DNA of 54,252 nucleotides from a virus (taxonomy: Duplodnaviria; Caudoviricetes). Under the pieces are notes generated by a model, which was not told where the DNA came from, did no database searches, and saw only the letters and a list, made by a program, of their open reading frames with translations. The position numbers and the translations under genes are program-made. Positions 2,716 to 39,868 of this stretch are shown here, one piece after another; the stretch's first letter is position 1, and every line of letters begins with the position of its first letter. The stretch lies in the IMG/VR virus record IMGVR_UViG_3300021373_002055, positions 1-54,252 of that record; one strand, written 5' to 3'.

Positions 2716-2723
2716 ATAAATAT
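2716..2723 (-). promoter_or_regulatory. class B (late-type) motif ATATTTAT
   Basis: 6 nt upstream of the ATG at 2709; same octamer recurs before other operon heads. Confidence 0.5.
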
Positions 2724-3271
2724 CATTCAAGTAAATTGTAGTTCCAATAACGTTCTTTGTCTTCGTTATATGGATTTCCTGATTGTTGATAGTAACAGTT
2801 CATGCAAAGCATTTGCAGATTGTCTATACAATGGTTAGTCGTATCTCCGTCTTTATGATCTAATAAAAGAGGCACAGTGTCATCTGTTATGCGACGTTCT
2901 TCATAACCACAACTAGCACATTTTTCTGGCAGTATGGCTAATGCTAAAAGTCTATTGCGCAGTTTCCATATAGGATACTTAGGATGTTTGCCTAAAAGTA
3001 TATTGTCTATACTATACACTCCTCGATTGGCTTTGACTACATCTTTAGGTATTCCAACTCCGAATTGATTTTTATGAAGTTCATACAATGTCTTACCAGT
3101 AGCTCTGTCAGTATACATTCGAGCATATTTTTTATAAGATGTAAATGATATCTTAAGAAAACGAGCTGCAGCTGCATTGGACTTAGTATTTTCCATTGCA
3201 TAGCGTATATCAGACTCAGGCACATTTAACGCCGTTCTTCCTTGACCATATACATACTTATATTCACTCAT
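2723..3271 (-). CDS. HNH endonuclease-family protein with N-terminal HTH-like region
   Basis: CASC...LDHKDGDTTNHCIDNLQMLCMNCY; N-terminal NAAAARFLKISFTSYKKY. Confidence 0.8.
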   Translation of the reverse strand: MSEYKYVYGQGRTALNVPESDIRYAMENTKSNAAAARFLKISFTSYKKYARMYTDRATGKTLYELHKNQFGVGIPKDVVKANRGVYSIDNILLGKHPKYPIWKLRNRLLALAILPEKCASCGYEERRITDDTVPLLLDHKDGDTTNHCIDNLQMLCMNCYYQQSGNPYNEDKERYWNYNLLE

Positions 3272-7759: not shown

Positions 7760-8977
7760 TTAATATTTATCAGTTACCGGGTATCCTTTATTAATACTGT
7801 CATTTGGATGTTTACCTGGTCCTTTTTTAAAATTTGTTTTATGACGATGTCCGGTACCCCATGGGCCTCCATAATCTGAGTAATCATGTTCTTTACCAAA
7901 TGGTCCTGCAAAGTCTTGTTCTTTTATAGTAGTCATATCCGTTAACAATTTCTTAAGTTTTTTAAGTATAGTGTTATGTTCTGGAGTCATTGGTATTTCT
8001 AATACTTTGCCTCCTGGGTAACCATAATCTTTTTCTGGGTGCATTATTTTGCTATGTCCAGTATCATCAATTCCCAATACTTTGTAAGGAACATTTTTCA
8101 TTGTTATTTGATTGCTAGGTATTACTGTGCATTGTTTTGGATGATCCCATTGACCTCTCGGATCTTCAATTGCGTTCATATATTTTAAAACATTTTGCCA
8201 ACTATTTTTGTCTAATGTTTTACGTTTTGTTATATGTGCTGCTAAATCGCCTATTACATCCATTTTAACGCCTCCTACAACTTGTTCTATTTGTAATTGA
8301 CTCAATGTAATACGTTTAGACATCTCTTTTAAACGAGCTAATAACCCTTTATTACGAAGTTTTTTGAAAGCTAAGTTTTCTATAGAATATTCACCTTCTG
8401 CTTCTAACCCGGTTTGTCTCATTTTGTATAATCGTTCTAATATATGTTTAATTTGATATTCTAATTTAGGATCTCGCTCTGACAAATTTTCTATTTCGTA
8501 TTCAAGTGGAGCCATTTTTGCATCAATAACTTCATCGTCGATTGATATAACATCAGCATTTGGTTTTTTTAACCATTTACTCTTCATTAATGAATATTGT
8601 CCTACTGATGAATGTAAACGATCATTCCAATCTTGTGCATATAATTCAATATCCATTCCCTTGTATGTTAACGGATAATTAGTACTCCATATGCTTTTTT
8701 TAGCCATCATTAAATTTTTAACTAAATGTAAATTCTTTCCTACTGATTGATAATCAATAACAACATGAAGATCGATATCTGATTTATCTGTCCAATTATA
8801 GTTTGCATTACTCCCAATAAGCAGAACATCTAATATTTTTGCTGTGTCTGGAACTTCTAAAAAATCATAGAATGCTTTTGCTATGCGAAGAAATTTATAG
8901 GATAGTCCTTTTTTAAGACGATCTCCGTCCCAAAGTTTTGGGTTTAATGTGCTCTGTGTTTCGTATTCGTGTAGCAT
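7760..8977 (-). CDS. Pol-beta superfamily nucleotidyltransferase with extra C-terminal domain
   Basis: LLIGSNANYNWTDKSDIDLHVVID (GS...DxD) and IELYAQD. Confidence 0.8.
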   Translation of the reverse strand: MLHEYETQSTLNPKLWDGDRLKKGLSYKFLRIAKAFYDFLEVPDTAKILDVLLIGSNANYNWTDKSDIDLHVVIDYQSVGKNLHLVKNLMMAKKSIWSTNYPLTYKGMDIELYAQDWNDRLHSSVGQYSLMKSKWLKKPNADVISIDDEVIDAKMAPLEYEIENLSERDPKLEYQIKHILERLYKMRQTGLEAEGEYSIENLAFKKLRNKGLLARLKEMSKRITLSQLQIEQVVGGVKMDVIGDLAAHITKRKTLDKNSWQNVLKYMNAIEDPRGQWDHPKQCTVIPSNQITMKNVPYKVLGIDDTGHSKIMHPEKDYGYPGGKVLEIPMTPEHNTILKKLKKLLTDMTTIKEQDFAGPFGKEHDYSDYGGPWGTGHRHKTNFKKGPGKHPNDSINKGYPVTDKY

Positions 8978-8992
8978 TTAATATAAATACCG

Positions 8993-9340
8993 TTACTTCC
9001 AAAAGAGCTGAATTGCTATAATTGAAAATGCTAATATTAAACATGTAGCTGTTTTTAAATTTACAGCTTCACCTCGAAATAAGTATGTCATGGCTGTAAA
9101 TATAACTATCCCTGATACAAAAGAAAGAAATCGGCCTGGCCAGAATTCTCCTTGAAATCCATCAACTGACAGTCGTGTTGCCTCCATGAATAAATATGTT
9201 ATTGGAATTCCACAAAACATTAAAGCCCAACGCCATTCTTTTGCCCACGGCCATATAATTGGTCCATTGACTTGTATCCATACGATACATTGTCCAAAAG
9301 TAAATAGTAATGCTGATAATGTGATATATTTTAGATTCAT
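8993..9340 (-). CDS. small 4-helix membrane protein (SMR/DMT-like topology)
   Basis: four hydrophobic segments in 115 aa. Confidence 0.65.
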   Translation of the reverse strand: MNLKYITLSALLFTFGQCIVWIQVNGPIIWPWAKEWRWALMFCGIPITYLFMEATRLSVDGFQGEFWPGRFLSFVSGIVIFTAMTYLFRGEAVNLKTATCLILAFSIIAIQLFWK

Positions 9341-9346
9341 TTATAT

Positions 9347-9375
9347 ATTATAAGAAATATATTTTACAAATCAAA
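9347..9375 (-). promoter_or_regulatory. class A promoter candidate TTTGAT-N17-TATAAT
   Basis: 17-nt spacing, 6 nt upstream of ATG 9340. Confidence 0.6.
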
Positions 9376-9700
9376 ATCCTCCCATTACTGCCTCGTCGAT
9401 TGCTTCTTGCATTTCACTTTTTGTAGCTGAAATTTTAAACGAAATGTCTGCTTGATAACGTTTTATTTCTTCCCCATCTAAAAACATTACGACTGTCGGC
9501 ACAACAACAACTTTATATTTTTGTTGTAAGTTTGGATATTTAGTTATATCGTAGTACTTAACATTACAATCCGTTAACTTAGTAAGCCATGTTACTTTGT
9601 TAGCGTTATTCCATGCTGCGTTAAAATGTTTAACGGTAATCTGACTATAACAATTCATCGTAAAAACTAATATACTTATAAGTAAAAATAATTTTTTCAT
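9371..9700 (-). CDS. exported thioredoxin-fold protein lacking CxxC
   Basis: signal peptide; HFNAAWN in place of FxAxWCxxC; KYKVVVVPTVVMFLDGEEIKR cis-Pro region. Confidence 0.7.
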   Translation of the reverse strand: MKKLFLLISILVFTMNCYSQITVKHFNAAWNNANKVTWLTKLTDCNVKYYDITKYPNLQQKYKVVVVPTVVMFLDGEEIKRYQADISFKISATKSEMQEAIDEAVMGGF

Positions 9701-9706
9701 AATAGA

Positions 9707-9991
9707 CTATCTTAAATTATCAATTTTTTCTTCAATTCTATCCATATCTTCTTTAAGTTCGGATACATCTTCTTGTGTAGTCATGATGGTCTGTCGTATT
9801 AACTGATCTTTCATGTCATATTCCATTCGGGTAACTTCTGGATCTGGTGGCTTTGGTAATTCTTTTGCCTCTTGTATGTCTGCCTGTAAAGCAAACCACA
9901 TTCCCACTACCGTTGCAATTGCAAATGCAATTCCTATCAATGTTTTAATACTTACCTTAAAACCAGTGTCTTCATTTAATTCTGTTGCCAT
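9707..9991 (-). CDS. single-TM protein with C-terminal coiled coil
   Basis: TLIGIAFAIATVVGMWFAL followed by heptads (VSELKEDMDRIEEKIDNL). Confidence 0.7.
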   Translation of the reverse strand: MATELNEDTGFKVSIKTLIGIAFAIATVVGMWFALQADIQEAKELPKPPDPEVTRMEYDMKDQLIRQTIMTTQEDVSELKEDMDRIEEKIDNLR

Positions 9992-10001
9992 ATCTCTGTC
10001 T

Positions 10002-11063
10002 TTATAATATTATATAATTTACTCCTACACTAAAATTGTGCCATCTTCTGTTCCAATATTTATTATATTTTCCTTCAAGGAATACTCCTAAACTTTTATT
10101 AAATTTATATCCAAATATCAATCCTCCAGAATAATCAATCCATTGACCGTCATTAAAATTGTGATATGAATATTCATTTGCAGTTTTAATATGAAGTGGC
10201 ATCAAGTTAGCCCAAGAATGAAGCCAAAAGTCTTTTGTATAGTGATAAAAATCAAAACCTAATACTAATGAATGATTCCATTGTAAGTCTAATGCGTTAC
10301 GTTCTTTTTCTGTATACTCTGCTAATACTTCTGGAACTACAACTGCTTCCCATACTTGTGTGTTTTCTGCAACTATATTACCTGCAGGATCAAAATATGT
10401 TACTCCACCATCACCATCAAATTCGATATTATATCCTTGTTGTAGTGCTAATTGTGTATAATGAAGATTTCCATCTGACAGTAACCATTCGTCTAATGGA
10501 TTATACCCATATGGTTCTGATATTCGTTGTACTGCACCAATATTAAATGATAATTTGTTTCCTAGTTTTTGTCTATAACGTTCTGAAGACTCAAAATACT
10601 GTATATCGGCAAATCCGTCTTGTACATATTCTACTTTTGCTATCCAATTTTTAGCAACATATCGTAAAAAGTGATCTTGATTAAAAAACGATGTACCTTG
10701 TTGACGTGTCCAATCTGCTTCAAATAAAAATTCAAATCCATTTATTTTTCCTATAGTAGCAGCGTCACCATATGTTTTTTCTGTACCATCAAAAAATACA
10801 TTAGTTCGATTTTCATATCCAAATCTTGCAATCTTTCTGATACCTAATGCAATAGAATAATCAAATGGTGTTTTTTCAGTAAACGTCTCTAATCCATCTG
10901 TTACAGAATAAACATCTACATCTGATACTGAATTACCTCCTGTTATTGCACCATAAAATGTAGAATATTTAAAAACTTTTTTAATTGTTTTTTTAAACTT
11001 AGAATCTGTTTGACTAAATGCAATGGTTGGTATTAGTAAAAATAATATTAATAATTGTTTCAT
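10002..11063 (-). CDS. putative outer-membrane beta-barrel protein
   Basis: signal peptide (IAFS|Q), alternating aromatic strands, terminal strand FSVGVNYIIL. Confidence 0.7.
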   Translation of the reverse strand: MKQLLILFLLIPTIAFSQTDSKFKKTIKKVFKYSTFYGAITGGNSVSDVDVYSVTDGLETFTEKTPFDYSIALGIRKIARFGYENRTNVFFDGTEKTYGDAATIGKINGFEFLFEADWTRQQGTSFFNQDHFLRYVAKNWIAKVEYVQDGFADIQYFESSERYRQKLGNKLSFNIGAVQRISEPYGYNPLDEWLLSDGNLHYTQLALQQGYNIEFDGDGGVTYFDPAGNIVAENTQVWEAVVVPEVLAEYTEKERNALDLQWNHSLVLGFDFYHYTKDFWLHSWANLMPLHIKTANEYSYHNFNDGQWIDYSGGLIFGYKFNKSLGVFLEGKYNKYWNRRWHNFSVGVNYIIL

Positions 11064-13435
11064 TGTTTTATAATTTTCTTGTTAAATTGTTTTCCGTCGT
11101 GCGTTATTGTTAAGAAATACACTCCAGTTTCTAATGTGTTTAGGTATAAACGATCGTCATTCCCGGTTAATACTACTTTACCAGTTGCGTCTTTTAATTC
11201 ATATACGATACTTAAATGGGTCTTAATATTTAAAATATTATCGGTTGGGTTTGGAAATACAACTATACCATTTGCTAACATTTCGTCTAAACCAACAGGC
11301 CACCCTTCTTCGCAATAGTCATACATTGATTGGCATGATGCATCCCATTCTGTTTCGCAACAATATACATCTACATCTATTACCCAAGCATAACAGCCGT
11401 TGTTTAGCCAATAAGGATTACCAGGTCCACCAACGCACCCTGCGTCGTATAGACACGCAGTTGAGTCAGATACATTTGCTTCAGGATTATAATTATATGC
11501 ATTTGGATCTGTACATCCTGCTAATGGTAGTATACAAGTCCCATTATCTGTATTAGCTAATGGATCGTAATTTAATGCAGTTGTGTCCGTACAACCAAAT
11601 ACTACTTCTATACATGATCCATTATCTGTGTTTGCTAAGGGGTCATAATTGAATGATGTTGGATCCATACAACCATAAATTACCGGTATACAAGAGCCAT
11701 CATCTACGTTTGCTAATGGATTATAATTAAAAGATTCTGGGTCTGTGCAACCATATATAGGATATATACAAGTTCCATTGTCTACATTTGCTGTTGGGTC
11801 ATAATTTAATGCTAAAGAATCCATACAGCCAAAGTATATACATGAACCATCATCGATATTTGCTTCTGCATTATAATTCCAAGACAACGGATCCATACAT
11901 CCATATACAGTAGATATGCAAGTGCCATCGTCAATATTGGCATTTGGATCATAATTAAATGCCAACTCATTTGTGCACCCATATACAATAGGAATACATG
12001 AGCCATCGTCTGTATTAGCTAATGGATTATAATTAAATGAAGTAGAGTCTAAACAACCATATATTTTAGGTTCGCAATAGTCTCCACAATATGGTAATGC
12101 TGAATATGTAATCCATGATGGAGATTCAAAAGGTTGTAATGCACCTTGTCCATTATTGGCAAAAGGATTTGATCCTTCATACATTAATTCAACACCATCT
12201 TCGTTAGTTAATTTAAATGAATTATGCCATGTTTGAAATTCAACTTCTTCTGGCGATTGTTGTGGTAACGCATTTTCAAAGTAGTAAACATATACTGGTT
12301 TATTAGTATTTAATGGGATATTAAAAGTTTGTTCACTCAATCCGAAGCCCATTGTATATGTTCCTAATGTGTTTCCGTCTTGATACACTCCGATATATGA
12401 GTTACCCCAGCCGTCAGCTGCAGCGTCACCAATCCATAATGTATAATTACATGTTTCTACTATTTGATTTATAGTAGCATCTGGATTATAATTATAAGCC
12501 GCGGTGTCGATGCACCCATATATATGCAAATTAGCACAAGTACCATCATCTACTGTAGCTTCTGGATTATATTCTTGATATGCTGAATTAGTACATCCTG
12601 GTATTGGTTCTATATTATTACACGGAACTCCATTAACAACTCCAGAATATGCAGTAGACCCAAAATTTGGCTCAGGTAGTTCCCACAATACGTTTCCATT
12701 GCAGTCATATATGACAACATCTCCGTCAATATTTCCACCAGTTGTAGATCCAGCTAAACCGTCACCATATGAATCATTAAAAACTAATTCTGCGCCAGCT
12801 GCAGGAATACATGTAGTATAACTATATGTTTGACCAATATCATTAAAGTTATAGGTACCTTGTGATATATTATATAATAAGTTCCCATTTGATTGATCTA
12901 CAAATAACCACGATGTTTCTCCTGGATAACTGTCTAATGTAACTTCGATTGTTACTTCGAAATCGCCAGGATCACAATTTTCTCCGCTGGTACCATCACA
13001 TGAACCGTCATCTTGATTAGCCCATGGGTTGTAATTTTCAGAGGTAGGCTCTGTACATCCAGGTATACATGCATATGGTGTATATGATATAGTGTCTGAT
13101 TGTGTACCGTCTACATAATTAATAACTAGATAATGTTCTACTGACCAATTTGGTGGCATATTTTGTGTCCCGGCATATACGCCAAAGTTACCACCAGGAA
13201 CATTTGCTGGTTGTCCAATTGGATATGTAAATGGACCTACACCTTCTGCCGTTGAATAAGAAACAGATTCTACTTCACAACTTCCTGGACCGTTAAACCA
13301 TTCGAATATTATAGCTGCTTGAGCGCCGTCATTGATGCATAGTTGGTATGCATTAGAACTTTCAAAATTACAATTCTGCGTTACACTTAAAAACGGAATA
13401 ATACTTACTAATAATAATAACAAAAACTTTTTCAT
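11060..13435 (-). CDS. secreted Cys-repeat protein with type IX secretion (type A) C-terminal sorting domain
   Basis: signal peptide; 11 GCxDxxAxNYNPxAxxDDGSC-type repeats; C-terminus VFPNPTDNILNI...LETGVYFLTI...KKIIKQ. Confidence 0.85.
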   Translation of the reverse strand: MKKFLLLLLVSIIPFLSVTQNCNFESSNAYQLCINDGAQAAIIFEWFNGPGSCEVESVSYSTAEGVGPFTYPIGQPANVPGGNFGVYAGTQNMPPNWSVEHYLVINYVDGTQSDTISYTPYACIPGCTEPTSENYNPWANQDDGSCDGTSGENCDPGDFEVTIEVTLDSYPGETSWLFVDQSNGNLLYNISQGTYNFNDIGQTYSYTTCIPAAGAELVFNDSYGDGLAGSTTGGNIDGDVVIYDCNGNVLWELPEPNFGSTAYSGVVNGVPCNNIEPIPGCTNSAYQEYNPEATVDDGTCANLHIYGCIDTAAYNYNPDATINQIVETCNYTLWIGDAAADGWGNSYIGVYQDGNTLGTYTMGFGLSEQTFNIPLNTNKPVYVYYFENALPQQSPEEVEFQTWHNSFKLTNEDGVELMYEGSNPFANNGQGALQPFESPSWITYSALPYCGDYCEPKIYGCLDSTSFNYNPLANTDDGSCIPIVYGCTNELAFNYDPNANIDDGTCISTVYGCMDPLSWNYNAEANIDDGSCIYFGCMDSLALNYDPTANVDNGTCIYPIYGCTDPESFNYNPLANVDDGSCIPVIYGCMDPTSFNYDPLANTDNGSCIEVVFGCTDTTALNYDPLANTDNGTCILPLAGCTDPNAYNYNPEANVSDSTACLYDAGCVGGPGNPYWLNNGCYAWVIDVDVYCCETEWDASCQSMYDYCEEGWPVGLDEMLANGIVVFPNPTDNILNIKTHLSIVYELKDATGKVVLTGNDDRLYLNTLETGVYFLTITHDGKQFNKKIIKQ
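11455..12060 (-). repeat. eight tandem coding repeats of about 24-27 aa
   Basis: GC(T/M/L)DxxxxNY(N/D)PxANxD(D/N)G(S/T)C units, visible in DNA as recurring ggattataatt/gggtcataatt. Confidence 0.85.
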
Positions 13436-13719
13436 ATTTCTTCTTCTGAGTCTGTTGAGTTAGGTCGTTTAAATATTTTACCTGCTTCTGCGATACCAAA
13501 ACATCCTAATGTAATCCATAAGAATGAATTGTAAATAAATTCGTTAACATGTAATGGATTTCCCATCCATCCAGTTACGATATCTGCTACTGCAAATAAC
13601 ACCATTACTGCAAACGAAGCAAATCCTACTACGCTTTTTTCATTGATATCATTTTCGTCTTTAAAAATATTTGCGAATGCCATGAGCTTTCCCTTTAAGT
13701 TTAAGAGTAACCTTTTCAT
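13432..13719 (-). CDS. two-TM membrane protein, holin candidate
   Basis: two hydrophobic helices, charged tail, directly downstream of the amidase; start may be 13683. Confidence 0.55.
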   Translation of the reverse strand: MKRLLLNLKGKLMAFANIFKDENDINEKSVVGFASFAVMVLFAVADIVTGWMGNPLHVNEFIYNSFLWITLGCFGIAEAGKIFKRPNSTDSEEEI

Positions 13720-13738
13720 AATTGCAACCTTTTATTGT

Positions 13739-14653
13739 TTATAATTGTTTTAACATTTCTACTAGTTCTGGTTGTGGAAAACAATCGAATTTATCTTTTC
13801 TAACATTCGTATGTGTCCATAAGCCAAATTGCTTTGCATTGTATGCATCTGCGTTAAATTCAAATGCATCTTTTGGATGAACTCCTTCTTTTAATAGTTT
13901 AGGTAGTCCATTTTCCAAATCCATTTTAGGATAAATGTCTTTTAAATGTAGAATAAGTAATCTTAAACTTTCTATTTGCTTATCTGAGTAAGCGTGCCAG
14001 TATTGATGACCTCTAAATTTATATCCTAAATCACAAACATATTCTGGTTTTACTTCAGTATTGACATATGTATAATACTTGTCGCCTTTCTTTTTGAGGT
14101 ATCCAAAATTATTTAGTTCAACACCACCTGATAGTTTGGATATTTTAAAACTTCCTACTTTACCTAGGTGCCAACCTAAATAGTTGTTTGGAAAACATTC
14201 TACTACAACGCCATCATGTTTAGTCTTGCCTTTTACATTGCTTCCACCAATACAATATTGAGTAGCTACTCGGCCTCGTTTGTCTTTGTTCCACTGACTA
14301 ACTGTGTTATATGGATTATCCCAACCAGCAGTATGATGCAAAAAGAATCCTAATGGCTCTATTTTACCATAGTCTCTTACGTATTCGTCTTTGTCTAAGT
14401 ATTGACGGTCAATTACTAATCCATCTTTAGTAGTGTATTGTGATTCTTCAGCTGCAGCTTCAGTGTCAGTATCAATACCAATAGCTTCCCATGTTTTGGT
14501 TCCAACTATACCGTCTGCTGTTAATCCGTTTTCTGATTGAAATCTGCGTACTGCTAACTCTGTATCCGCACCGAATATACCGTCTGCGGATAATTCTAAT
14601 GCAGTTTGTAACTCTTTTACGTGTGAGCCTTTACTGCCTCGTTTTAATAACAT
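13739..14653 (-). CDS. endolysin: peptidoglycan-binding domain plus N-acetylmuramoyl-L-alanine amidase
   Basis: LKRGSKG..VKELQ..L...ADGIFG..T..AVRRFQ...GL.ADGIVG.KTW; FLHHTAG, GVEL, THTNVRKDKFDC. Confidence 0.9.
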   Translation of the reverse strand: MLLKRGSKGSHVKELQTALELSADGIFGADTELAVRRFQSENGLTADGIVGTKTWEAIGIDTDTEAAAEESQYTTKDGLVIDRQYLDKDEYVRDYGKIEPLGFFLHHTAGWDNPYNTVSQWNKDKRGRVATQYCIGGSNVKGKTKHDGVVVECFPNNYLGWHLGKVGSFKISKLSGGVELNNFGYLKKKGDKYYTYVNTEVKPEYVCDLGYKFRGHQYWHAYSDKQIESLRLLILHLKDIYPKMDLENGLPKLLKEGVHPKDAFEFNADAYNAKQFGLWTHTNVRKDKFDCFPQPELVEMLKQL

Positions 14654-14668
14654 ACTTATCCTTTAATA

Positions 14669-14676
14669 ATAAATAT
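14669..14676 (-). promoter_or_regulatory. class B motif ATATTTAT
   Basis: 15 nt upstream of the endolysin ATG. Confidence 0.5.
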
Positions 14677-14689
14677 GTATTGTTTAAGA

Positions 14690-15508
14690 TTACCGTAGAT
14701 ATTTTTTATTGTTTTGAGGATTGTGCTGTATATAACCGCCCCATTTGTATTGTGCGTAAGCGTGTCCTGCTGCTTCTGCCTTCATTCTTGCTTCTCCATT
14801 GGTTGATACTGAGGCAAAATGATAGAAGCTTGTGTTCTTGGTTCTACACATTTTAATTTCAGATAAATTGCACTTTAAAAAGAAGTCCCAATCTGCAACC
14901 ATTCCTAACTCATAGTTTTCATCCCACCCACCTAATCGTAGATAATCTTTCTTATACATCATAAACGGTAATGTTGAGCCATTCCAATTGTGCCCTGCTT
15001 TTACTAAGTTTTGTTCATACTTCCAGAAACGATCTAAATCGAAACTCTCAACATCAGTACCTAAGTTTTCTATTACAAAGTCTTTGAACATAGATGGGTA
15101 TGGTTCTATCTGATTTGGTGTCAATACTATAGGATATGATCTTTCCAAATTATCCCAATATGTTCTGCTACAGTTGGAATGATATATATTCCAATCTTCT
15201 TCTAAACGGGTATCCCAATCTTTAGGAAACACATTGTCATCATTAACGATCAACACCTTATCGTATTTTGCGTTCATTACTCCTAGATTGGTTCCTCTAC
15301 ACAATCCAACATTCTGTTCCATATCGAGAATGTCAATAGATCCACCTCTGACGCTGTCATACTTGTACAGCACTTCTTTGTTTATATCGTAATGACCATC
15401 GACTACTACGATTATCTGATTAAAATTCTTTTGACCCTTTGTCGCAGACTCTAGGCATAAGTCTAGCATTTCTGGATTTTTATATGTTGGTATTATTACT
15501 GATATCAT
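14690..15508 (-). CDS. glycosyltransferase family 2
   Basis: MISVIIPTY, VVVDG, IVNDD, GGWDE, DWDF; start 15508 by ATGA overlap. Confidence 0.85.
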   Translation of the reverse strand: MISVIIPTYKNPEMLDLCLESATKGQKNFNQIIVVVDGHYDINKEVLYKYDSVRGGSIDILDMEQNVGLCRGTNLGVMNAKYDKVLIVNDDNVFPKDWDTRLEEDWNIYHSNCSRTYWDNLERSYPIVLTPNQIEPYPSMFKDFVIENLGTDVESFDLDRFWKYEQNLVKAGHNWNGSTLPFMMYKKDYLRLGGWDENYELGMVADWDFFLKCNLSEIKMCRTKNTSFYHFASVSTNGEARMKAEAAGHAYAQYKWGGYIQHNPQNNKKYLR

Positions 15509-16215
15509 ATTGTATATGCTCTCCAATTAGTTAATGGTGATAGCCAGGCTGTCTCTCCGTGTGTAGCATAGCCAGGTAAAGGTGTTATCAACAACTCTCC
15601 TTGCTGTCTTAACTCTAAAAACATTTGGAAATCATTAGGATGTGTTCCTGATGTATGTTTTCTTAATATGGACTCTACTCGTTTCAATGTAGATACCTTT
15701 GCAGCAAACGTCATGGTTGTGCTATTGGTTATTTTCCAATGACAGCTGTTAGTCAAATAAACTCTTGTGTCTTCACCGCCACCTTCGCAATATGGATTAC
15801 CTCCTTTGCTTGGGTCTAGGTATTTATCTGGATGATCATATAGTGCTACAAATGATGCTCCTAATTCAAACCCTTCTCGTATTATCTTTGCTGACTCTGG
15901 TTTATGTATGTAATCATTTTCTATAAAATAAACTATATCATCATCATTATATTTCAATGCTTCGTCTAATGCTAAGTTAAATGTGCCTGCTCCATGTCCT
16001 ACTGAAACTGATTTAACTTTGGTTTCTGCTAAATGAAAAGATGTTGTTACAGCTTTTACCATATCTGTAGTTTCATCACTACAATTATCAGCAATAACTA
16101 ACCAATCTTCCTTTTCGAATCGATTCGACGCATTTACTAAACATGTTTCATTGTCTATGTAATCTGGTTTTTCTTTTTTATAACCAGCATCTGATATTCT
16201 ATAAATTATTTTCAT
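15505..16215 (-). CDS. GT-A fold glycosyltransferase
   Basis: VIADNCSD and YFIENDYIH motifs. Confidence 0.75.
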   Translation of the reverse strand: MKIIYRISDAGYKKEKPDYIDNETCLVNASNRFEKEDWLVIADNCSDETTDMVKAVTTSFHLAETKVKSVSVGHGAGTFNLALDEALKYNDDDIVYFIENDYIHKPESAKIIREGFELGASFVALYDHPDKYLDPSKGGNPYCEGGGEDTRVYLTNSCHWKITNSTTMTFAAKVSTLKRVESILRKHTSGTHPNDFQMFLELRQQGELLITPLPGYATHGETAWLSPLTNWRAYTI

Positions 16216-17924
16216 GTTAATTTAATTTTATTTTTTGGTACCGTATAAAAATGTTCTGATTGTTTTTTATTTAACAATGTTTGATGTGCGACAAATGTTT
16301 CTTTAATTGCATTTAAACGTATCCAATTATGCTTCCATAAAACATATGGAAATGAAATCTGATCTCGAATAGAATTATTATTTATTTCTGCCCACCACAT
16401 TTCATTGAAACTAACAATGTGACTATTGTTTCGTCTCATCAATATACCAGTTTCATATAATCCATAATCTTCATATTGTTCTCGAAGATATTTTTTTATT
16501 TGATTATTAACAATTGTGCTATCATCTAAGTTTCTTTGAATTATAACTTCTGCTTCTTGTATTATATTACTTCGATCACAATGTTCATGTAGACACATAT
16601 CAAAATTTGTCATATACAATTCAAATAAATCAACTGGGTCGTATTTAAACAAACATGAATTATCCATCCATATCCAAGCATCATAATTTGGTAAATATTT
16701 GTGCGGTAACATTTTATATTTACGGGCTTGTTTTCTAGCAGACAATTCACAATCAACTAATCTAATATCCCATGTATTAGATTTTAAATGTGGTGTATTA
16801 GTAAAACATATAAATTCTATAGAGCTATCTCTATATTCTGGCAATGTTCCGTGTATGTGTTCAATATCATCTGTAAACAATGCAGTATATACTACTAATC
16901 TTTCTTTATTCATATCAATGTTTTCAATGTGTTTAACATAATGTTTTGTGCTACAAAATTCTTCTCCGCCTTTTATAGTATTTTTTATATAGTCATTATA
17001 TCTACCATGTTCTATTTGTTCTTCAATATTTTTTTTCACAACATCTGGTTGCATTTCTACTAATCCAGGATATGAATCAAACGCACCAACGGCTCCTGCG
17101 CCTTTAATTAACACGGTTGGTATTCCTAATTGTATAGGTTTAAAACATAGTGTCGACGGAGCAGCAACTATTAGAATTGAATCTGCTATTAATTGATCAA
17201 TATCCTCACAATTTGTAACAACATCACAATCTAGTATACTTTTAACATAATTTATATCTTCAACATAGTTTGGTTTATCAAGTCTTGTTTTTATTTTAAC
17301 CTTTATAGGACATTGAAACTTTTCTTGTAATTCTAATAGACCGGTTCGTTGTATAAATGTTTTATCAAAGTTAACTGGAAATATGGAGCTACGATTTGAT
17401 AAAAAGTTAGTTATAACTAAAATATGCTTATTGTTACCTTTAACATGTTTTAGTGTGTCATTAGTTGGTATGCCTCCTTTACTAAAGTCCATACTATAAT
17501 CATATGCAGTTCCAATTTCGTTATGTGGTGAATCTTCATTTCCGTGTGAGTTGCCGATTACTATAACATTATTTTGTTTACAATATTGATAAAAAGATGG
17601 AATATTATATTCTGGTTTCTTTCTATTGTCATCGTATATTACAAACTTATACTTAGATATATCTATATAATCACAAAGACTTTGCTTTATACGATCTCCA
17701 TGAAATTGCACTCCTGGCCCTTGTATTATATTATCAATATAATCTTTGTATTGTTCTAGTTTTAACTCACGTTCATCTATATCACCTACCCATGGTGTTT
17801 CGTTACTAAACAATCCAATTGAAAACAAATCAATAACATAATTTTTAGATAATTCGGGTATGATAGGCCATAGTTTTTCTGCAACACGATGATTAGTAAA
17901 TAATAATAAAACACGTTGATCCAT
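16212..17924 (-). CDS. two-domain glycosyltransferase-like fusion (GT-B-like N-terminus plus DUF616-like C-terminus)
   Basis: N-part DIDQLIADS...STLCF...LGIPTV; C-part VVYTALF, FICFTN, RKYKMLPH, WIWMD, RDQISFPY; start 17924 by TAATG overlap. Confidence 0.7.
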   Translation of the reverse strand: MDQRVLLLFTNHRVAEKLWPIIPELSKNYVIDLFSIGLFSNETPWVGDIDERELKLEQYKDYIDNIIQGPGVQFHGDRIKQSLCDYIDISKYKFVIYDDNRKKPEYNIPSFYQYCKQNNVIVIGNSHGNEDSPHNEIGTAYDYSMDFSKGGIPTNDTLKHVKGNNKHILVITNFLSNRSSIFPVNFDKTFIQRTGLLELQEKFQCPIKVKIKTRLDKPNYVEDINYVKSILDCDVVTNCEDIDQLIADSILIVAAPSTLCFKPIQLGIPTVLIKGAGAVGAFDSYPGLVEMQPDVVKKNIEEQIEHGRYNDYIKNTIKGGEEFCSTKHYVKHIENIDMNKERLVVYTALFTDDIEHIHGTLPEYRDSSIEFICFTNTPHLKSNTWDIRLVDCELSARKQARKYKMLPHKYLPNYDAWIWMDNSCLFKYDPVDLFELYMTNFDMCLHEHCDRSNIIQEAEVIIQRNLDDSTIVNNQIKKYLREQYEDYGLYETGILMRRNNSHIVSFNEMWWAEINNNSIRDQISFPYVLWKHNWIRLNAIKETFVAHQTLLNKKQSEHFYTVPKNKIKLT

Positions 17925-18571
17925 TATCCTATACCTTTCCAAGTTGCTCCATTTCCAGTATAAAAATGATTAACTGATATGGATGAGTCGTAAATATAAT
18001 GTTGATGTTTATCTATCATATCTTTTGCCCAATATCTATCTTCTTTGCCTGGATATTGTTCCGGCATTGGATTATTAACTAAAACGGCTTTTTCATAAAA
18101 ACAAAATGCGTTATGAAGAAAATATCGTTGTTCTATATCTGAATACATATCCAATGTATCTTCTTCAGAAAAATGACTCCATATATATCTTTTTGATATT
18201 TTTTTGCCTTTGTATACAGGAATTTGATTTCCAAATACTGCTACATTTTTATTTTTAAAATGCATCACAACACGTTCAAGATTCATGTTAGTAATTTGAG
18301 CGTGTGCTGATAGTACCAAAACATAGTCATTAGAACATTGTTTAACACCCATATTAATTGATTTGCCAGGCGTATAGTCGTTGATTGATATAATTTTAAT
18401 CGTAGTTCGATCTTTAAATAAATTGACAATTTCTAATGAATCATCAGTAGATTTATTATCTACTATTATGATTTCTGGTTTTTTGAAATGATCTAAACAA
18501 GATTGAATAGCAAATCCTATAAACTCGGCCTCATTTCTATTTCTTATAATAATGCTAATATTATCCATCAA
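17924..18571 (-). CDS. glycosyltransferase family 2
   Basis: ISIIIRNRNE, IIIVDNKSTD, ED motif. Confidence 0.85.
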   Translation of the reverse strand: MMDNISIIIRNRNEAEFIGFAIQSCLDHFKKPEIIIVDNKSTDDSLEIVNLFKDRTTIKIISINDYTPGKSINMGVKQCSNDYVLVLSAHAQITNMNLERVVMHFKNKNVAVFGNQIPVYKGKKISKRYIWSHFSEEDTLDMYSDIEQRYFLHNAFCFYEKAVLVNNPMPEQYPGKEDRYWAKDMIDKHQHYIYDSSISVNHFYTGNGATWKGIG

Positions 18572-19358
18572 ATCTACCTGTATAATTTAATCTTGAATCT
18601 AACTCAAAATCTTGATAATCTAGTCCATTTTCAATCATCATATCATTTCGTAATTTTAAGTATTCAGATAAGTTATTTAATTGTTTAGGAAGTATTGCAA
18701 ATTTATTGTCTCTTCCTGGCAATTCATTATCTACCGTAAAATGTTTTTCAATTGCATGTATTCCGAATTCAATTGCAACTTTTGCAGATTCAACCCCTTG
18801 CATATGATCTGAATATCCAACCCATTTAAACAATTTATTTAATTCTTTTAATTTTAAAATATTTGCATTTTTTGGATGTAATGGATATGTTGAAACACAA
18901 TGCATTATACACGTTTTATTAATATCAATAATACGTGCTAACTCTTTAACTTCATCCCATGTAGTAGTTCCAATTGATATATATACTTTATCAAACACCT
19001 CCATGCATTTTTTAATAAGCGGATAATTTCTACTTTCGAAAGATGGTATCTTTACACACTTTGTTGTTACTTGTTTATATATCTCAATATCTCGTAATGA
19101 AAATACAGATGACATAAATTCGATATTATTATCATCACATACCTGTTTAAGATATTTATGGTCAGCTAATGTTAATTGAGCTTTTTCATATATTTCACGA
19201 CGGCCATCAGTATCCCATACTCCAGGTTTAAGATTACTTACTGACCATGATTGAAATTTTGCATGTGTCGCTCCATTTGCTGCCGCTTCATTAATCATTT
19301 GTTTTGCTAATGCCATATCACCCATATGGTTCCAGCCTATTTCTGCTATAATATTCAT
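18561..19358 (-). CDS. neuB: N-acetylneuraminate/nonulosonate synthase family, no C-terminal SAF domain
   Basis: IIAEIGWNHMGD, AKFQ, KIPS, MHCVSTYP, GYSDH, IEKHFT. Confidence 0.9.
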   Translation of the reverse strand: MNIIAEIGWNHMGDMALAKQMINEAAANGATHAKFQSWSVSNLKPGVWDTDGRREIYEKAQLTLADHKYLKQVCDDNNIEFMSSVFSLRDIEIYKQVTTKCVKIPSFESRNYPLIKKCMEVFDKVYISIGTTTWDEVKELARIIDINKTCIMHCVSTYPLHPKNANILKLKELNKLFKWVGYSDHMQGVESAKVAIEFGIHAIEKHFTVDNELPGRDNKFAILPKQLNNLSEYLKLRNDMMIENGLDYQDFELDSRLNYTGRFDG

Positions 19359-19894
19359 AGTCGTTCTTTTGCTCGTTCTAAATCTTGTTGGTAATGTATA
19401 TCGGTTGCATCATCTTTTATACATCCTATTCTTTTTGAAACATTACTGTTTAGTAAATGATCATATTTAAAAATTCTAACAGATCCGCTCCGTTTAAATG
19501 ATGGTTCAATTGTAATCAAATCGTCATAGTTATTATCTATCATATAATCTACACAATAATCAAAAGTATGTTCTCTGTCTGGATGATCAGGTTGTAAACA
19601 AACTATTAAATCAAATTCTTTATCTATTGAATTAAGTAAATCAATATACACATCTGTTACCTCTGCGTCTTTAAGTAAATGTACTGGTCGCTCTACAAAT
19701 GTTACTTTATTATCTAATGCTATTTTTAATACTTCATCACTTTCTGATGAAACAACAATTGTAGGATTATATTTACTTTGTTTAGCATAATCAATTGAAT
19801 ACTCAACTAATGTTTTACCTTTAATTTTTTGTATATTTTTTTTAGGTAATCTAGTTGAATCTGTTTTTGCTGGTATTATTGTTAATATCTTCAT
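19355..19894 (-). CDS. neuA: CMP-nonulosonate synthetase (cytidylyltransferase)
   Basis: IIPAKTDSTRLPKKN, LQPDHP, DIHYQQD; adjacent to neuB. Confidence 0.85.
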   Translation of the reverse strand: MKILTIIPAKTDSTRLPKKNIQKIKGKTLVEYSIDYAKQSKYNPTIVVSSESDEVLKIALDNKVTFVERPVHLLKDAEVTDVYIDLLNSIDKEFDLIVCLQPDHPDREHTFDYCVDYMIDNNYDDLITIEPSFKRSGSVRIFKYDHLLNSNVSKRIGCIKDDATDIHYQQDLERAKERL

Positions 19895-20838
19895 AATTTA
19901 TTTATAGCCCATTTATATGCTCTAGTTTGACCTTCAATCGTCATTCCGCCAGTATGTGGTGTAACAATTATATTTTCTCCTTGATTCATTGCTTGTATAA
20001 TAGGAGATGCTTGTAAGTCGTCAAATTCATTTTCAACTACATCTGCACCATAACCTGATATAACTTTATTTTCCAATGCTTCTACAATGTCTTGTTCGTT
20101 AACTATTTCTCCTCTACTGGTATTAATAATATATGGAGATTTTTTACTATATCCAAGTAATTCTTTATTAATCATGTACTTCGTTTCATCAGTAACATGC
20201 ACGTGTAACGATATAACATCACATTGTTTAAACATATCTGTTAACTCGCAATAAGTATTAAGTAAAAACGCATCATCCATTTCATCTCGTTTATATGGAT
20301 CATATACTTTTACATTAGCTCCAAATGCTTTACAATAACTGTACATCATTTTTCCTAAACGACCGTAGCCAATGATACCTATAGTCAATGATTTAACTTC
20401 TCGTCCTATAAATGGTATATAGTCCCAATTATATTCAGAAACATGTTGTTTGCTTTGTGGTATACTTCGTAGCAATGACAACATTAGTCCAAATGCTAAT
20501 TCTGAAGTAGATGGTAACTGTTTAATTAATTCATAATCTTTAGTTAAAGACAAAATTTTAATGTTTTGTTTTTTACAATATTCAACGTCGATATGATTCA
20601 TACCAGTTGAACATGTATTGATTAAGTTAACATCGGTTCCTTGTAATAGCTCTTTATCAATTTTATATGTTTGTTGATTAGGATTACAAACTATAGTATC
20701 AATATTACGTTTTAATAGTAAATCTCTAACTTGTTCTTTTGTTGATTCTTCACGAAGATATAACTCGTCACTTTTATTTATAAGTAATTGTACGATTCCG
20801 TCTAAATGAAATACTGGGGTTATTACTGCTATTTTCAT
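19891..20838 (-). CDS. D-isomer-specific 2-hydroxyacid dehydrogenase
   Basis: GIIGYGRLG, INTSRGEIV, ADV, TPHTGG. Confidence 0.9.
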   Translation of the reverse strand: MKIAVITPVFHLDGIVQLLINKSDELYLREESTKEQVRDLLLKRNIDTIVCNPNQQTYKIDKELLQGTDVNLINTCSTGMNHIDVEYCKKQNIKILSLTKDYELIKQLPSTSELAFGLMLSLLRSIPQSKQHVSEYNWDYIPFIGREVKSLTIGIIGYGRLGKMMYSYCKAFGANVKVYDPYKRDEMDDAFLLNTYCELTDMFKQCDVISLHVHVTDETKYMINKELLGYSKKSPYIINTSRGEIVNEQDIVEALENKVISGYGADVVENEFDDLQASPIIQAMNQGENIIVTPHTGGMTIEGQTRAYKWAINKL

Positions 20839-21791
20839 TTTTTATTTTGTATGTTTAAACAAATTTCCTGAATTACTTCGTTTGTGTTTTTTCTAATTTT
20901 ATAATCTAGCAATTTTTCTGCCTTTGTAATATTAGCAAATCTAACTAATATTTCTTGATAATTTCCAAATATTTTTTCAGCTGGGACAAATATTATGTCT
21001 GATTGATTTTTAAAATAATTATTAATATATTCTGCAGTGTATTTTACTGTAGTTTGTTCATTGGTTCCTAAATTTATAATTTCACCATTTGTAGTTTGTT
21101 GATTATTTAAAATACTTACAAATCCAGCTGCTATATCATTTGCGTGAGAAATTGATCTAGTTTGCAATCCATCACCATGTATTACAATGTCTTTACCTTG
21201 AGATGATAATTTAGCAAATAATGGAATATGTCCTCCACTCCATGTTGTCGAAGACCGTTTTGAAGCACACCCAAAGATACGTATTACGGTGCACTCTAAT
21301 CCTTGTTGCTGAAAGGTATTTAGTATGTGTTGTTCACTATACCATTTTGATAAAGCATATGAATATCGTACGTTAGTGGGGGCGCCCATTGTTATGTTAT
21401 CGTCTTCGCAAAATGTTTTTGAATTTCCATATATATCACTAGTAGATGCAAATATAAATTTAGTTTTATGTTGTAAACAACGTTGAACTAATAACTTAGT
21501 CATATGATAATTTGTATCTAATATGTCTGCAGATAATACACTACCATCCCATGCTTTTTTTAACGATGCAAAATGATATATAATATCATATTTTGTTTTA
21601 TAGTTTTCAATGTTTTCTACTTTGTCATGTATAAATTTAAAATTTTTGTTTTTTATAGCATCTGACAAGTTATCTAGCCTTCCATATGATAAGTCGTCAA
21701 TACCATCAACCATATGTCCTGCTTCAAGCAATAAATCTGTTGTATGACTTCCTATCAGCCCGGCAGCTCCTGTTACTAATATTTTTTTCAT
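20835..21791 (-). CDS. NAD-dependent nucleotide-sugar epimerase/dehydratase
   Basis: TGAAGLIG, ASTSDIYG, YALSK, GDGLQTR. Confidence 0.9.
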   Translation of the reverse strand: MKKILVTGAAGLIGSHTTDLLLEAGHMVDGIDDLSYGRLDNLSDAIKNKNFKFIHDKVENIENYKTKYDIIYHFASLKKAWDGSVLSADILDTNYHMTKLLVQRCLQHKTKFIFASTSDIYGNSKTFCEDDNITMGAPTNVRYSYALSKWYSEQHILNTFQQQGLECTVIRIFGCASKRSSTTWSGGHIPLFAKLSSQGKDIVIHGDGLQTRSISHANDIAAGFVSILNNQQTTNGEIINLGTNEQTTVKYTAEYINNYFKNQSDIIFVPAEKIFGNYQEILVRFANITKAEKLLDYKIRKNTNEVIQEICLNIQNKK

Positions 21792-22750
21792 ATGTTAACA
21801 CTTTTTAATGGTCCATTATTTACATTGTGATTAAAAAATTCTAAAATAAGAGTATTTGCATAATGTTGCTCTATTACATCAGAATATTTATGAACATTTT
21901 CATAATGCCATCCCCATCTGTCTTTCCATGCTTTAAAGTTAGAATATTCACCAAAGTGATAATCGTTTCCTTGTATCGCTCCCTGTGCTGAATTTTTATT
22001 TATGTTGTATTTTTCTTTTAATGATTGATTGTTTAAACAATATAAATCTGGTAATATTAAACATGGTTTATTTTTATGATTGAATTGCATAGCAATATCA
22101 GGTAACCATAAGTGAAAATGATATTGATTTGTTGCAATTATATGTTTATTCCAATTTGAAACATTTATTCCAACGGCTGCCCACATCGGAAACTCTACAA
22201 TAAATGGAGTTCTCCATACTTCTTGTTTTAGTAATTCTGTTTGCCGCTTTGTACATAACCAACGTTTAGAATTATTTCGAATTGACAAATGACACATTCC
22301 TATCATTCCTAGCGGAGACTCTCCTCGATCGAATTGCTGTAAACTATTTGATGTGTAGTTACCATGATCTAAAACATTGAATCCAACTATACCAAAGTCA
22401 TTGAGTTTATCACTTTGTATATATTTGTCTAACTTCGAAAAAAAGTTTTTTGATATAGGGTATATATCATGTTGAAAACAAACTACCCATTTACAGTTAG
22501 GACGATTTTCATTAACAAAGTCTATAAGTGTTTGAGTAGCCATTTGTACACCTCTATCTTTGTTCTTTAGAAAAACAACATCATGTTGTTTGCAAATAGC
22601 TTCACCTTTATTTAATTCATCAACAGAAGAATTGTCATCAACATTGATAAATTCAAAACCTTCGGTATTAATGTTTTTCAATACCTCATTTTCTAACATA
22701 TCATAATTGTTTCTTGAAGATACATATATGATAATACTATCACGCTTCAT
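21788..22750 (-). CDS. glycosyltransferase family 2-like
   Basis: NVDDNS and CFQHD motifs. Confidence 0.75.
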   Translation of the reverse strand: MKRDSIIIYVSSRNNYDMLENEVLKNINTEGFEFINVDDNSSVDELNKGEAICKQHDVVFLKNKDRGVQMATQTLIDFVNENRPNCKWVVCFQHDIYPISKNFFSKLDKYIQSDKLNDFGIVGFNVLDHGNYTSNSLQQFDRGESPLGMIGMCHLSIRNNSKRWLCTKRQTELLKQEVWRTPFIVEFPMWAAVGINVSNWNKHIIATNQYHFHLWLPDIAMQFNHKNKPCLILPDLYCLNNQSLKEKYNINKNSAQGAIQGNDYHFGEYSNFKAWKDRWGWHYENVHKYSDVIEQHYANTLILEFFNHNVNNGPLKSVNI

Positions 22751-24447: not shown

Positions 24448-24452
24448 ATTAT

Positions 24453-24481
24453 ATTATAATAAATTTACTTTAAATATCCTA
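24453..24481 (-). promoter_or_regulatory. class A promoter candidate TAGGAT-N17-TATAAT
   Basis: 17-nt spacing; heads the inner glycosylation operon. Confidence 0.55.
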
Positions 24482-39867: not shown

Positions 39868-39868
39868 A

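Follow-up and report, generated by a model that had tools for sequence, protein, structure and literature searches.

A predicted type IX secretion cargo in a conserved envelope cassette of uncultured phages

Introduction

The secretion system of type IX (T9SS) is the principal pathway through which Bacteroidota construct their cell surface. Phages that carry genes for cargo of this system have been described: Cryophage encodes T9SS cargo of type A, which was called a unique occurrence (Bellas et al. 2020, Nat Commun, PMC7468147), and crAss-like cluster 2 phages harbor open reading frames (ORFs) with a T9SS sorting domain (de Jonge et al. 2019, PMC6949934). Here we analyzed a gene of this kind, which lies at positions 11060 to 13435 on the minus strand of a 54,252-nt stretch of viral DNA (IMG/VR record IMGVR_UViG_3300021373_002055; this whole stretch is referred to as the window). 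An earlier note on this DNA had interpreted the gene as encoding a phage-borne T9SS substrate; it missed both the published precedent for phage-encoded T9SS cargo (PMC7468147) and the membership of the gene in a conserved phage envelope cassette beside lysis genes. Like the genes of Cryophage and the crAss-like phages, the gene ends in a type A sorting domain, is presumed to hijack a host system and varies between variants.

In cellular T9SS, PorV binds type A cargo, while type B cargo has PorP/SprF-like partners. Two-component spanins of the Rz/Rz1 type consist of an i-spanin, with a transmembrane (TM) segment and a periplasmic helix, and an o-spanin, which is a small outer-membrane lipoprotein. 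T5 Llp, Cor and proteins of the Lom/Bor type are phage outer-membrane or surface proteins that block receptors; these are small lipoproteins or barrels exported via Lol/BAM.

T9SS cargo is either anchored or released after passage (PMC10202324), and the type A C-terminal domain (CTD) is an Ig-like 3+4 beta-sandwich (PMC11285876). Bacteroidota signal peptides are described as following a Q-rule (PMC5837995, PMC10653852), signal peptides of this type were noted before in Porphyromonas phage genes (PMC10367356), and D-[ST]-[AILVMT] is given as the O-glycosylation motif of Bacteroidota (PMC8550257).

Results

The gene encodes a predicted type A T9SS cargo

Judged by its sequence, the 791-residue product of the gene is a type A T9SS cargo. 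The gene and its parts are as follows.

11060..13435, minus strand: T9SS-tagged cargo gene (P0001, 791 aa) with signal, three beta-sandwiches, 11 Cys repeats, Cys-rich knot and CTD
13376..13435, minus strand: Sec-type signal peptide, aa 1-20, with Gln20 as likely mature N-terminus under the Bacteroidota Q-rule (hydrophobic segment and orthologues)
13061..13375, minus strand: predicted FN3/Ig-like beta-sandwich at the N-terminal end, aa 21-125, which varies more than any other part (structure model)
12086..12973, minus strand: two further predicted beta-sandwiches, aa 155-272 and 331-450, with Cys repeats 2-3 between them (structure model)
11453..12058, minus strand: eight tandem 26-aa one-disulfide repeats, aa 460-661 (pattern search and orthologue alignment)
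11291..11452, minus strand: Cys-rich knot, aa 662-715 (...YCC-x3-WD-x2-C...), nearly invariant in the orthologue alignment
11063..11260, minus strand: type A T9SS CTD, aa 726-791 (TIGR04183, PF18962, six-frame search)

The sorting domain occupies the extreme C-terminus, i.e. the last 66 of the 791 residues. TIGR04183 matched aa 726-791 with 40.5 bits (cut-off 23) and was covered from position 1 to 72 of 72, PF18962 matched the C-terminus with 38.6 bits (cut-off 27), and a six-frame search with TIGR04183 gave 46.6 bits at 11063-11260. Both curated models thus lay above their cut-offs and were matched over their full length, which bears out the assignment of a type A CTD to this ORF in the earlier note, including the comparison with TIGR04183 that it had proposed as a check. 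The type B model TIGR04131 did not match the cargo at E ≤ 0.1, and none was found in G000-G004, a weak search since the control genomes gave no match either. Matches of the cargo to solved structures were weak (lipase 7pzj, E 0.0091; the CTD to a 75-aa Endonuclease I chain, 8glk_D, E 0.014).

The domain is kept among relatives. Of the 68 distinct C-terminal tails from cargo-like ORFs beside the barrel gene described below, 64 matched TIGR04183, with at least 29.6 bits each; the misses were L072 (834 aa), L092 (1292 aa), L110 (892 aa) and L112 (663 aa), and in both L072 and L112 a second cargo-like copy carries the CTD. The related protein clusters number more than 4270, and of the best 120 of these, 118 had a precomputed PF18962 match. 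Large Cys-repeat ORFs without CTD were also seen in related phages (L019:36-4169, L020:83-3400, L072:86-2590, L092:13-3891, L112:365-2356); several of these are truncated at the 5' end.

The N-terminus of the cargo, MKKFLLLLLVSIIPFLSVTQ, contains two lysines, a hydrophobic 19-mer (aa 4-22, mean Kyte-Doolittle 1.97) and then Gln20. By reading of the alignment, glutamine ends the hydrophobic segment in 17 of 17 orthologues, so that the Sec signal seen by the earlier note is retained as a prediction with a conserved pattern. In a crude screen, 49 of 55 distinct cargo N-termini had a hydrophobic core, and all 49 of these had a glutamine within 16 aa after it; the N-termini of the neighboring barrels behaved alike, with a glutamine within 16 residues downstream in 64 of 64 that had a hydrophobic core. 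That the host belongs to the Bacteroidota is suggested by the CTD being of type A, by the glutamine that follows the signal peptide and by the relatives of the repeat in metagenome-assembled genomes (MAGs; see below). One relative of the barrel is labelled as coming from a 'Bacteroidetes bacterium' MAG (8.7-kb contig).

Cysteine repeats, beta-sandwiches and a variable tip

The cargo contains 38 cysteines. All of the 11 disulfide-type repeats mentioned in the earlier note were recovered by pattern search and reading; they are copies of a one-disulfide unit of 20-21 residues (C-x19/20-C) with the consensus G-C-[TM]-D-x3-NY[ND]-x-x-AN-x-DDG-[ST]-C, and their first cysteines are at residues 127, 281, 308, 461, 487, 513, 537, 563, 589, 615 and 641. 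The tandem repeats are likely to form a stalk. Among 13 close orthologues, the repeats (84% identity) and the Cys knot (86%) were the most conserved parts of the cargo, and compared to a distant group of four orthologues the repeats were 56% identical. The N-terminal domain and the CTD were 66% and 65% identical among the close orthologues and 15% and 31% identical to the four distant ones.

The repeat unit recurs in ORFs of 4439 and 4601 aa from a Crocinitomicaceae MAG and a Bacteroidota MAG, and short matches to the Cys knot were obtained in MAGs of several phyla. With cargo-specific patterns, no cellular orthologue of the whole cargo was found and matches were limited to the level of repeats or knot; because of the specificity of these patterns, the scan can miss cellular relatives.

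A structure model of aa 21-460, built with 26 aligned sequences, was all-beta, with a predicted local distance difference test score (pLDDT) of 73.3 and a predicted template modelling score (pTM) of 0.38, the latter being consistent with loosely linked domains. Block means of pLDDT were 84-91 for the domain at aa 155-272 and about 41-79 for the one at aa 331-450, and the GDG[LW] motifs of both inner beta-sandwiches were invariant in the orthologue alignment. With VIA, the first domain gave Z 8.0-8.9 to many FN3/Ig-type domains, a range which this tool rates as common. Foldseek ranked highest the BIg domains of SiiE, a giant adhesin (3.6e-5), along with FN3 arrays and pb4, the central fibre protein of T5. 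A protein atlas search with aa 150-275 returned sub-threshold leads only (0.81 and 0.77).

In longer relatives of the cargo, other modules were found at or near the tip, namely MAM at aa 28-174 of P0004 and at aa 43-198 of P0008; a CBM48-like domain lies at aa 176-221 of the relative P0113, and a precomputed MAM match was present in eight of the 120 best relatives. No enzyme domain was detected in the cargo with Pfam even at E ≤ 10. Since no enzyme domain is recognisable and the tip is exchanged for FN3-like, MAM or CBM48-like modules, the cargo most likely binds something. The predicted arrangement, beta-sandwich beads on a stalk with a swappable N-terminal tip, fits a binding protein.

The earlier note had also drawn attention to glycosylation sequons. 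All six D-[ST]-[AILVMT] sites exist as it listed them (DTI114, DTA310, DST463, DSL539, DTT617, DST657), but their enrichment is weak: 2.66 sites were expected from composition, and six or more occurred in 90 of 2000 shuffled sequences. Moreover, the sites are not independent, because four of the six share one fixed position of the repeat consensus. The 16 orthologues have four to nine sequons each, about twice the expectation, and at each site of the cargo a sequon is retained in 8 to 13 of the 17 orthologues in the alignment. Glycosylation of the cargo is possible, but the numbers of sequons do not demonstrate it. Thus, from the T9SS-substrate reading of the earlier note, the phage-borne gene and the features for Sec and subsequent T9SS export stand as far as they can be judged from sequence, while its glycosylation argument is statistically weak. 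The purposes that it put forward, namely superinfection exclusion, adhesion, grazer evasion or jamming of the secretion system, are hypothetical.

The gene belongs to an uncultured phage lineage

The window is an IMG/VR viral record with a completeness rating of 32%, in which all 61 of 61 larger ORFs lie on a single strand. PHROG matches included a family B DNA polymerase (3.3e-175), a clamp loader, a sliding clamp and a UvsX-like recombinase, as well as a gp32-like single-stranded DNA-binding protein, a DnaB-like helicase, ribonucleotide reductase, dUTPase and an endolysin; by these matches the replication genes are of T4 type. Comparison with 50,697 deposited phage records showed that the polymerase is at most 43.8% identical to any of them and that the barrel encoded next to the cargo has no match among them, from which we conclude that the lineage is uncultured. 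In the same records, megablast of the region gave no match, and tblastn of the cargo gave a single record in which 16% of the cargo was covered, by the repeats alone.

The gene order around the cargo was shared by 21 viral contigs found with the cargo protein as query, and the same arrangement was present on 69 of 80 viral contigs found with the barrel. The cargo gene was also present in four of four related genomes rated 96-100% complete (G001-G004). G001 and G003, which are closest to the window (~155-158 kb), encode a capsid protein of the T4 gp23 type (PF07068, 2.2e-73 and 4.1e-77); in G002 and G004, of a ~120-kb kind, PF07068 had no match. Because Gp23 was matched only in the ~155-kb genomes, the cassette formed by the cargo and its three envelope neighbors occurs in two or more distinct groups of phages. 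A single type A CTD gene (TIGR04183) was found in the window and in each of G001, G002 and G003, and two in G004. The latter (245,646 bases, rated 100% complete) carries near-equal cargo copies at 104591-107086 and 223331-225826, 118.7 kb apart, and may well represent a ~120-kb genome in concatemeric form.

Thirteen public runs contained half or more of the words sampled from positions 8900-14700 of the window; of the rows with near-identical sequence for this region, which came from many studies, 11 carried the label freshwater metagenome and 2 the label seawater metagenome. Either the phage or close kin of it are widespread, or the run labels are loose. Contigs from two other runs, X2 and X4, bridge the junctions on either side of the cargo gene: X2 record 18 covers 10164-12256, X4 record 27 covers 10748-11448 with no differences, and X4 record 29 covers 12211-14056. 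The continuity with flanking phage genes, for which the earlier note had suggested a check, was thus confirmed. Since independent contigs and phage genomes of 96-100% completeness share the arrangement, host contamination and chimeric assembly were ruled out. In a metatranscriptome, run X18, contigs matched the repeat region at 11475-12196 with 90-95% identity (e.g. 557 nt with 44 differences, ~92%); these pieces are from the repeat of a relative and are no proof of transcription of this gene; carry-over of DNA is possible.

The cargo gene lies in an envelope cassette

The genes next to the cargo gene are the following.

13739..14653, minus strand: endolysin with PG_binding_1 and Amidase_2 domains and no signal peptide (Pfam, PHROG)
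13432..13719, minus strand: 95-aa membrane protein, a holin candidate, strongly hydrophobic at aa 30-48; its gene starts 19 bp beyond that of the endolysin
10002..11063, minus strand: predicted 353-aa outer-membrane 12-stranded beta-barrel with signal peptide (predicted structure, fold matches)
9707..9991, minus strand: 94-aa predicted inner-membrane protein of bitopic layout, with its TM segment at aa 17-35 followed by a periplasmic tail that is charged and helical (the coiled-coil protein)
9371..9700, minus strand: 109-aa predicted exported protein of thioredoxin-like fold without CxxC (Thioredoxin_2, 23 bits, below the cut-off of 27)

The cargo gene overlaps its neighbors by 4 bp (ATGA) on both sides, with the stop of the 95-aa gene at its start and its own stop at the start of the barrel gene. 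On account of these overlaps the cargo is predicted to be translationally coupled with the envelope proteins. At lenient thresholds, PHROG and PADLOC gave nothing useful for the six cassette proteins, and the cassette proteins did not match a PHROG lysis family. The 95-aa protein had no family match in Pfam or PHROG.

The AlphaFold2 model of the barrel, with 12 strands and an inserted domain, is of medium confidence (pLDDT 65.9, pTM 0.62). Its fold matched KdgM (4pr7_A, Z 14.9, root mean square deviation (rmsd) 3.1, 164 residues aligned), NanC (2wjr_A, Z 14.7; Foldseek 1.5e-6) and Tsx (Z 14.0), and also autotransporter barrels. The match to PorV, a 14-stranded FadL-like barrel, reached Z 7.8 (6h3i_F, rmsd 4.7, 178 aligned), and the sequence models of PorV, PorQ, PorP and SprF did not match the barrel in Pfam and NCBIfam scans. 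No family was found for it in Pfam (E ≤ 10, apart from a chance match to FtsH_ext at 0.14), NCBIfam (E ≤ 0.1), PHROG or PADLOC, nor was there a sequence match to solved structures. An alignment of 19 sequences, 56-93% identical to the barrel of the window, had 114 invariant columns, and the C-terminus in most of them is NYVIF or NYIIF (motif NY[VI]I[FL]). A profile search returned 404 barrel clusters at 50% identity, the full-length members of which are all about 340-430 aa long; eight distant barrels had no Pfam family, and no viral loci were found for the distant barrels P0376 and P0464. A complex prediction of barrel aa 19-353 with cargo aa 662-791 scored 0.13 and 0.07 against a mark of 0.32 and is uninformative either way.

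For the 94-aa protein no family match was obtained, the best PHROG being one of unknown function (E 5.8e-4). By reading, no small lipobox ORF of o-spanin kind flanks its gene, the flanks being the barrel and the thioredoxin-like gene. The thioredoxin-like protein has WNxxN or similar in place of W-C-x-x-C; among 55 distinct homologues, CxxC occurs anywhere in only one and [VI][VL]PT is kept in 54. It is referred to below as the dead thioredoxin, and together with the barrel and the coiled-coil protein as the trio.

Linkage of the cargo to the trio across phages

The linkage was determined in two samples. With a profile of close barrels at least 584 viral contigs were found, and the best 80 (60-92% identical) were used, of which 42 loci extend for 4 kb or more to either side of the barrel gene. 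At these close loci, a cargo-like gene was present in 42 of 42, the coiled-coil protein in 37, the thioredoxin-like protein in 40, a homologue of the 95-aa protein in 14 and an amidase endolysin in six. The 11 loci without cargo among the best 80 all end short on the side where the cargo would lie. A 4-bp overlap between the cargo gene and the barrel gene was seen in 23 of 69 pairs; at other close loci the gene order is permuted and the genes are still within a few kb.

The second sample was obtained with a profile of divergent barrels (at least 576 contigs; best 80 used, 30-61% identical to the barrel of the window, median 33%) and gave 49 loci with enough flank. Here the coiled-coil protein was present in 47 and the thioredoxin-like protein in 31, but a cargo-like gene in only five. 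The set of barrel and coiled-coil protein is thus older and wider and the cargo an add-on, as the comparison of 42 of 42 close with 5 of 49 divergent loci indicates; in the clade of the window the cargo appears to have become fixed beside this older envelope set.

Other genes were seen near the barrel or the cassette. At many divergent loci (L149-L154, L158, L160, L167, L172-L174, L178, L187-L189, L191-L192, L194, L197 and L200) a giant ORF of ~1900-2300 aa without CTD match lies near the barrel gene, directly before it or a few small ORFs apart, with ribonucleotide reductase genes downstream on the opposite strand. A 155-aa SNase-like protein (PF00565, 27.4 bits) is encoded near the cassette in 10 of the 42 close loci (L051, L054-L056, L058, L061, L065, L091, L104, L110). 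L058 has an additional Fe/Mn superoxide dismutase gene, and in L061 a Zeta_toxin-family kinase domain and a PAP2 phosphatase are encoded nearby.

Lysis context, promoters and other genes of the window

Cluster representatives of the neighboring ORFs (150 of 158) were compared with Pfam. A GTA_holin_3TM protein was found near the cassette in eight loci and an M15 peptidase in one. In total, a lysis-type gene (95-aa-like, GTA_holin_3TM, amidase or M15) lies within 3 kb of the cassette in 23 of the 42 close loci, which is a lower bound since most neighbors have no family. The association of the cassette with lysis genes is thus frequent but not universal.

In scans of the window, sigma-70 promoters (44 versus 46.1 expected) and terminators (3 versus 3.3) were no more frequent than in shuffled sequences. 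The T4 late-promoter word TATAAATA occurred 12 times (14.3 expected), and none of these was upstream of the cassette. No tRNA genes were found.

Just upstream of the endolysin gene, at 14690-27204 on the minus strand, about 13 genes have glycosyltransferase, GtrB-like, nucleotide-sugar epimerase and related PHROG matches; this large sugar-modification cluster could alter host surface glycans, the virion or DNA. At 39097-41319 (minus strand), QueE-like, QueD-like and GTP cyclohydrolase genes (PHROG, 2.6e-47, 1.2e-35 and 1.7e-61) suggest synthesis of 7-deazaguanine as in phage DNA modification. A GroES-like gene is located at 38479-38790. At 398-1546 and 2723-3271, both on the minus strand, the products match an AAA+ ATPase (phrog_249, 9.8e-33, labelled as porphyrin biosynthesis, CobS-like) and an HNH endonuclease (2.1e-15).

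Discussion

The cargo is probably an envelope protein made by the phage, which the infected Bacteroidota cell exports first by Sec and then by its T9SS, and which stays bound to the surface or is released and binds host surface structures. The Sec system would move the cargo to the periplasm, where the signal peptide would be cut before Gln20 and about 19 disulfides would form. The folded protein would then pass the T9SS of the host by means of its type A CTD, driven by the proton-motive force, and would either become attached to the cell surface through its C-terminal end or be released. The stalk would hold the variable binding tip away from the cell, and a surface glycan or receptor of host cells is our best guess for its target. 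Such binding might leave the infected cell and its debris with a masked or occupied surface, leading to less superinfection and less loss of progeny. The cargo would probably be made together with the envelope set, late in infection, while the proton-motive force is still present.

Several observations weigh against this interpretation. The notion of a binding protein is taken from the architecture, as the fold matches are generic (best Z 8.9). G001 yielded no paralogue of the cargo at any other place, and therefore there is no sign that the tip copies the receptor-binding protein of the phage itself. The relative in L110 (892 aa) has the same body with an undetectable CTD, and the T9SS of the host is deduced from the tag and the glutamine pattern alone. 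A cargo-like gene accompanies the barrel set in only 5 of 49 divergent loci, and among 180 distinct neighbor tails there (ORFs of at least 250 aa), TIGR04183 (E ≤ 1e-4) matched two of the 150 that were scanned; the 30 unscanned tails are from L191-L201, where an in-house CTD profile marks L195 and L201. Since the trio mostly occurs without cargo, a physical link between cargo and barrel is not required. Finally, a recognisable lysis gene is missing within 3 kb in 19 of the 42 close loci, and late timing is not established, because lysis genes are near in only 23 of 42 and the promoter and terminator scans were uninformative.

The position of the cassette could also be explained by a role in lysis, in which cargo, barrel, coiled-coil protein and dead thioredoxin together break or loosen the outer membrane and replace a spanin or disruptin. 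In the window the cassette begins 19 bp after the endolysin gene and includes the holin-like gene, its four products would span inner membrane, periplasm, outer membrane and surface, 23 of the 42 close loci have a lysis-type gene no more than 3 kb away, and the predicted layout of the 94-aa protein, an N-terminal TM segment followed by a periplasmic helix, resembles that of an i-spanin. Nevertheless we regard this as unlikely: besides the 19 close loci that have no recognisable lysis gene nearby, the trio occurs without cargo in 44 of 49 divergent loci, so that its role does not depend on the cargo, it is not obvious what a variable-tipped extracellular fibre would contribute to the fusion or rupture of membranes, and no lipoprotein partner resembling an o-spanin was seen. 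Export by the T9SS needs an energised membrane and hence would have to precede holin triggering. With a similarly low probability, the cargo could be an adhesin or lectin that is released, either as free protein or carried by vesicles, and makes infected cells stick to particles, algae or neighboring hosts, so that progeny stay near new hosts. This agrees with the release of some T9SS cargo (PMC10202324), with a beads-on-a-string architecture like that of giant adhesins, with MAM and CBM48-like tips in relatives and with the occurrence of the same repeats in giant surface-type proteins of Bacteroidota MAGs; but a mask for receptors fits the architecture equally well, and the cargo is coupled so tightly to membrane proteins that it is more likely to act while bound to the cell.

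Jamming of the secretion system, raised in the earlier note, would mean that abundant cargo acts as a decoy which saturates the T9SS, so that host adhesins or gliding proteins used by phages as receptors are no longer exported. In Flavobacterium, resistance to phages has been mapped to genes for gliding and the T9SS (bioRxiv 10.1101/2020.10.02.323337, PMC9804748), so that surface structures dependent on the T9SS matter for adsorption in this genus. Yet a jammer would not need a conserved, disulfide-rich body of 700 aa with a diversifying tip, and the CTD is an ordinary full-length type A domain, which makes jamming very unlikely. Least probable, to the point of being negligible, is an artefact, be it a host gene misassembled into phage DNA or a virion fibre with a CTD-like beta-sandwich. 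The repeat type does occur in cellular MAG proteins, and some related phage loci have Cys-repeat ORFs without CTD; against this stand the shared gene order on 21 and on 69 of 80 viral contigs, the four genomes of 96-100% completeness and the junction-bridging contigs of other runs. A virion fibre was ruled out by the signal peptide, since a cleavable signal peptide is incompatible with virion assembly in the cytoplasm.

An exported envelope protein that binds host surface structures thus remains our preferred interpretation. It is conceivable, at rather long odds, that cargo, barrel, coiled-coil protein and dead thioredoxin build one trans-envelope phage structure, in which the barrel holds or receives the fibre delivered by the T9SS and the inner-membrane protein couples this to the holin and the membrane potential; this would be an undescribed device for sensing or blocking incoming phages, or for priming the outer membrane for lysis, in a large share of the marine phages that infect Bacteroidota.

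A single dedicated T9SS cargo gene is fixed in a widespread group of uncultured marine phages, and the neighboring barrel is found on at least 584 viral contigs. If the cargo is indeed displayed on infected cells, the surface of abundant marine bacteria would regularly be remodelled by phages in the course of infection, which would have a bearing on superinfection, particle aggregation and grazing. The set of barrel, coiled-coil protein and dead thioredoxin, which has no described family, poses a second problem. In open-access papers and preprints, no description of the Cys-repeat cargo or of this set was found.

Compared to cellular type A cargo of the T9SS, the protein shares the Sec signal with the glutamine pattern, a multi-domain body and a CTD of ~70 aa that matches from end to end. 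In contrast to such cargo, it is encoded by a phage genome of lytic type, and in the scan with cargo-specific patterns only its repeat units recurred within proteins of MAGs. The pairs of secreted proteins with PorV or PorP/SprF resemble the locus in that a secreted protein is encoded beside, and translationally coupled to, an outer-membrane barrel; the phage barrel matches no sequence model of PorV, PorQ, PorP or SprF and is predicted, at medium confidence, to be KdgM/NanC-like with 12 strands, and its family is mostly without CTD cargo in divergent phages. With spanins the cassette has in common that envelope proteins are encoded beside holin and endolysin, one of them with a predicted N-terminal TM segment and a predicted periplasmic helix after it. 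However, an integral barrel of 353 aa takes the place of the small lipoprotein, and the surface fibre and the dead thioredoxin have no counterpart in spanins. Llp, Cor, Lom and Bor embody the same idea, that a phage protein at the outer membrane alters adsorption to the infected cell or to debris, but they have no relation to the cargo in sequence or fold and are not cargo of the T9SS.

The closest described case is Cryophage, which has three variable cargo genes with endoglucanase, GH39 and PA14 domains (PMC7468147), whereas here a single cargo without enzyme domain is encoded. Unlike what is described there, the cargo consists of Cys repeats and beta-sandwiches, in its clade always lies beside the barrel, the coiled-coil protein and the dead thioredoxin, and is very common, with more than 4270 protein clusters.

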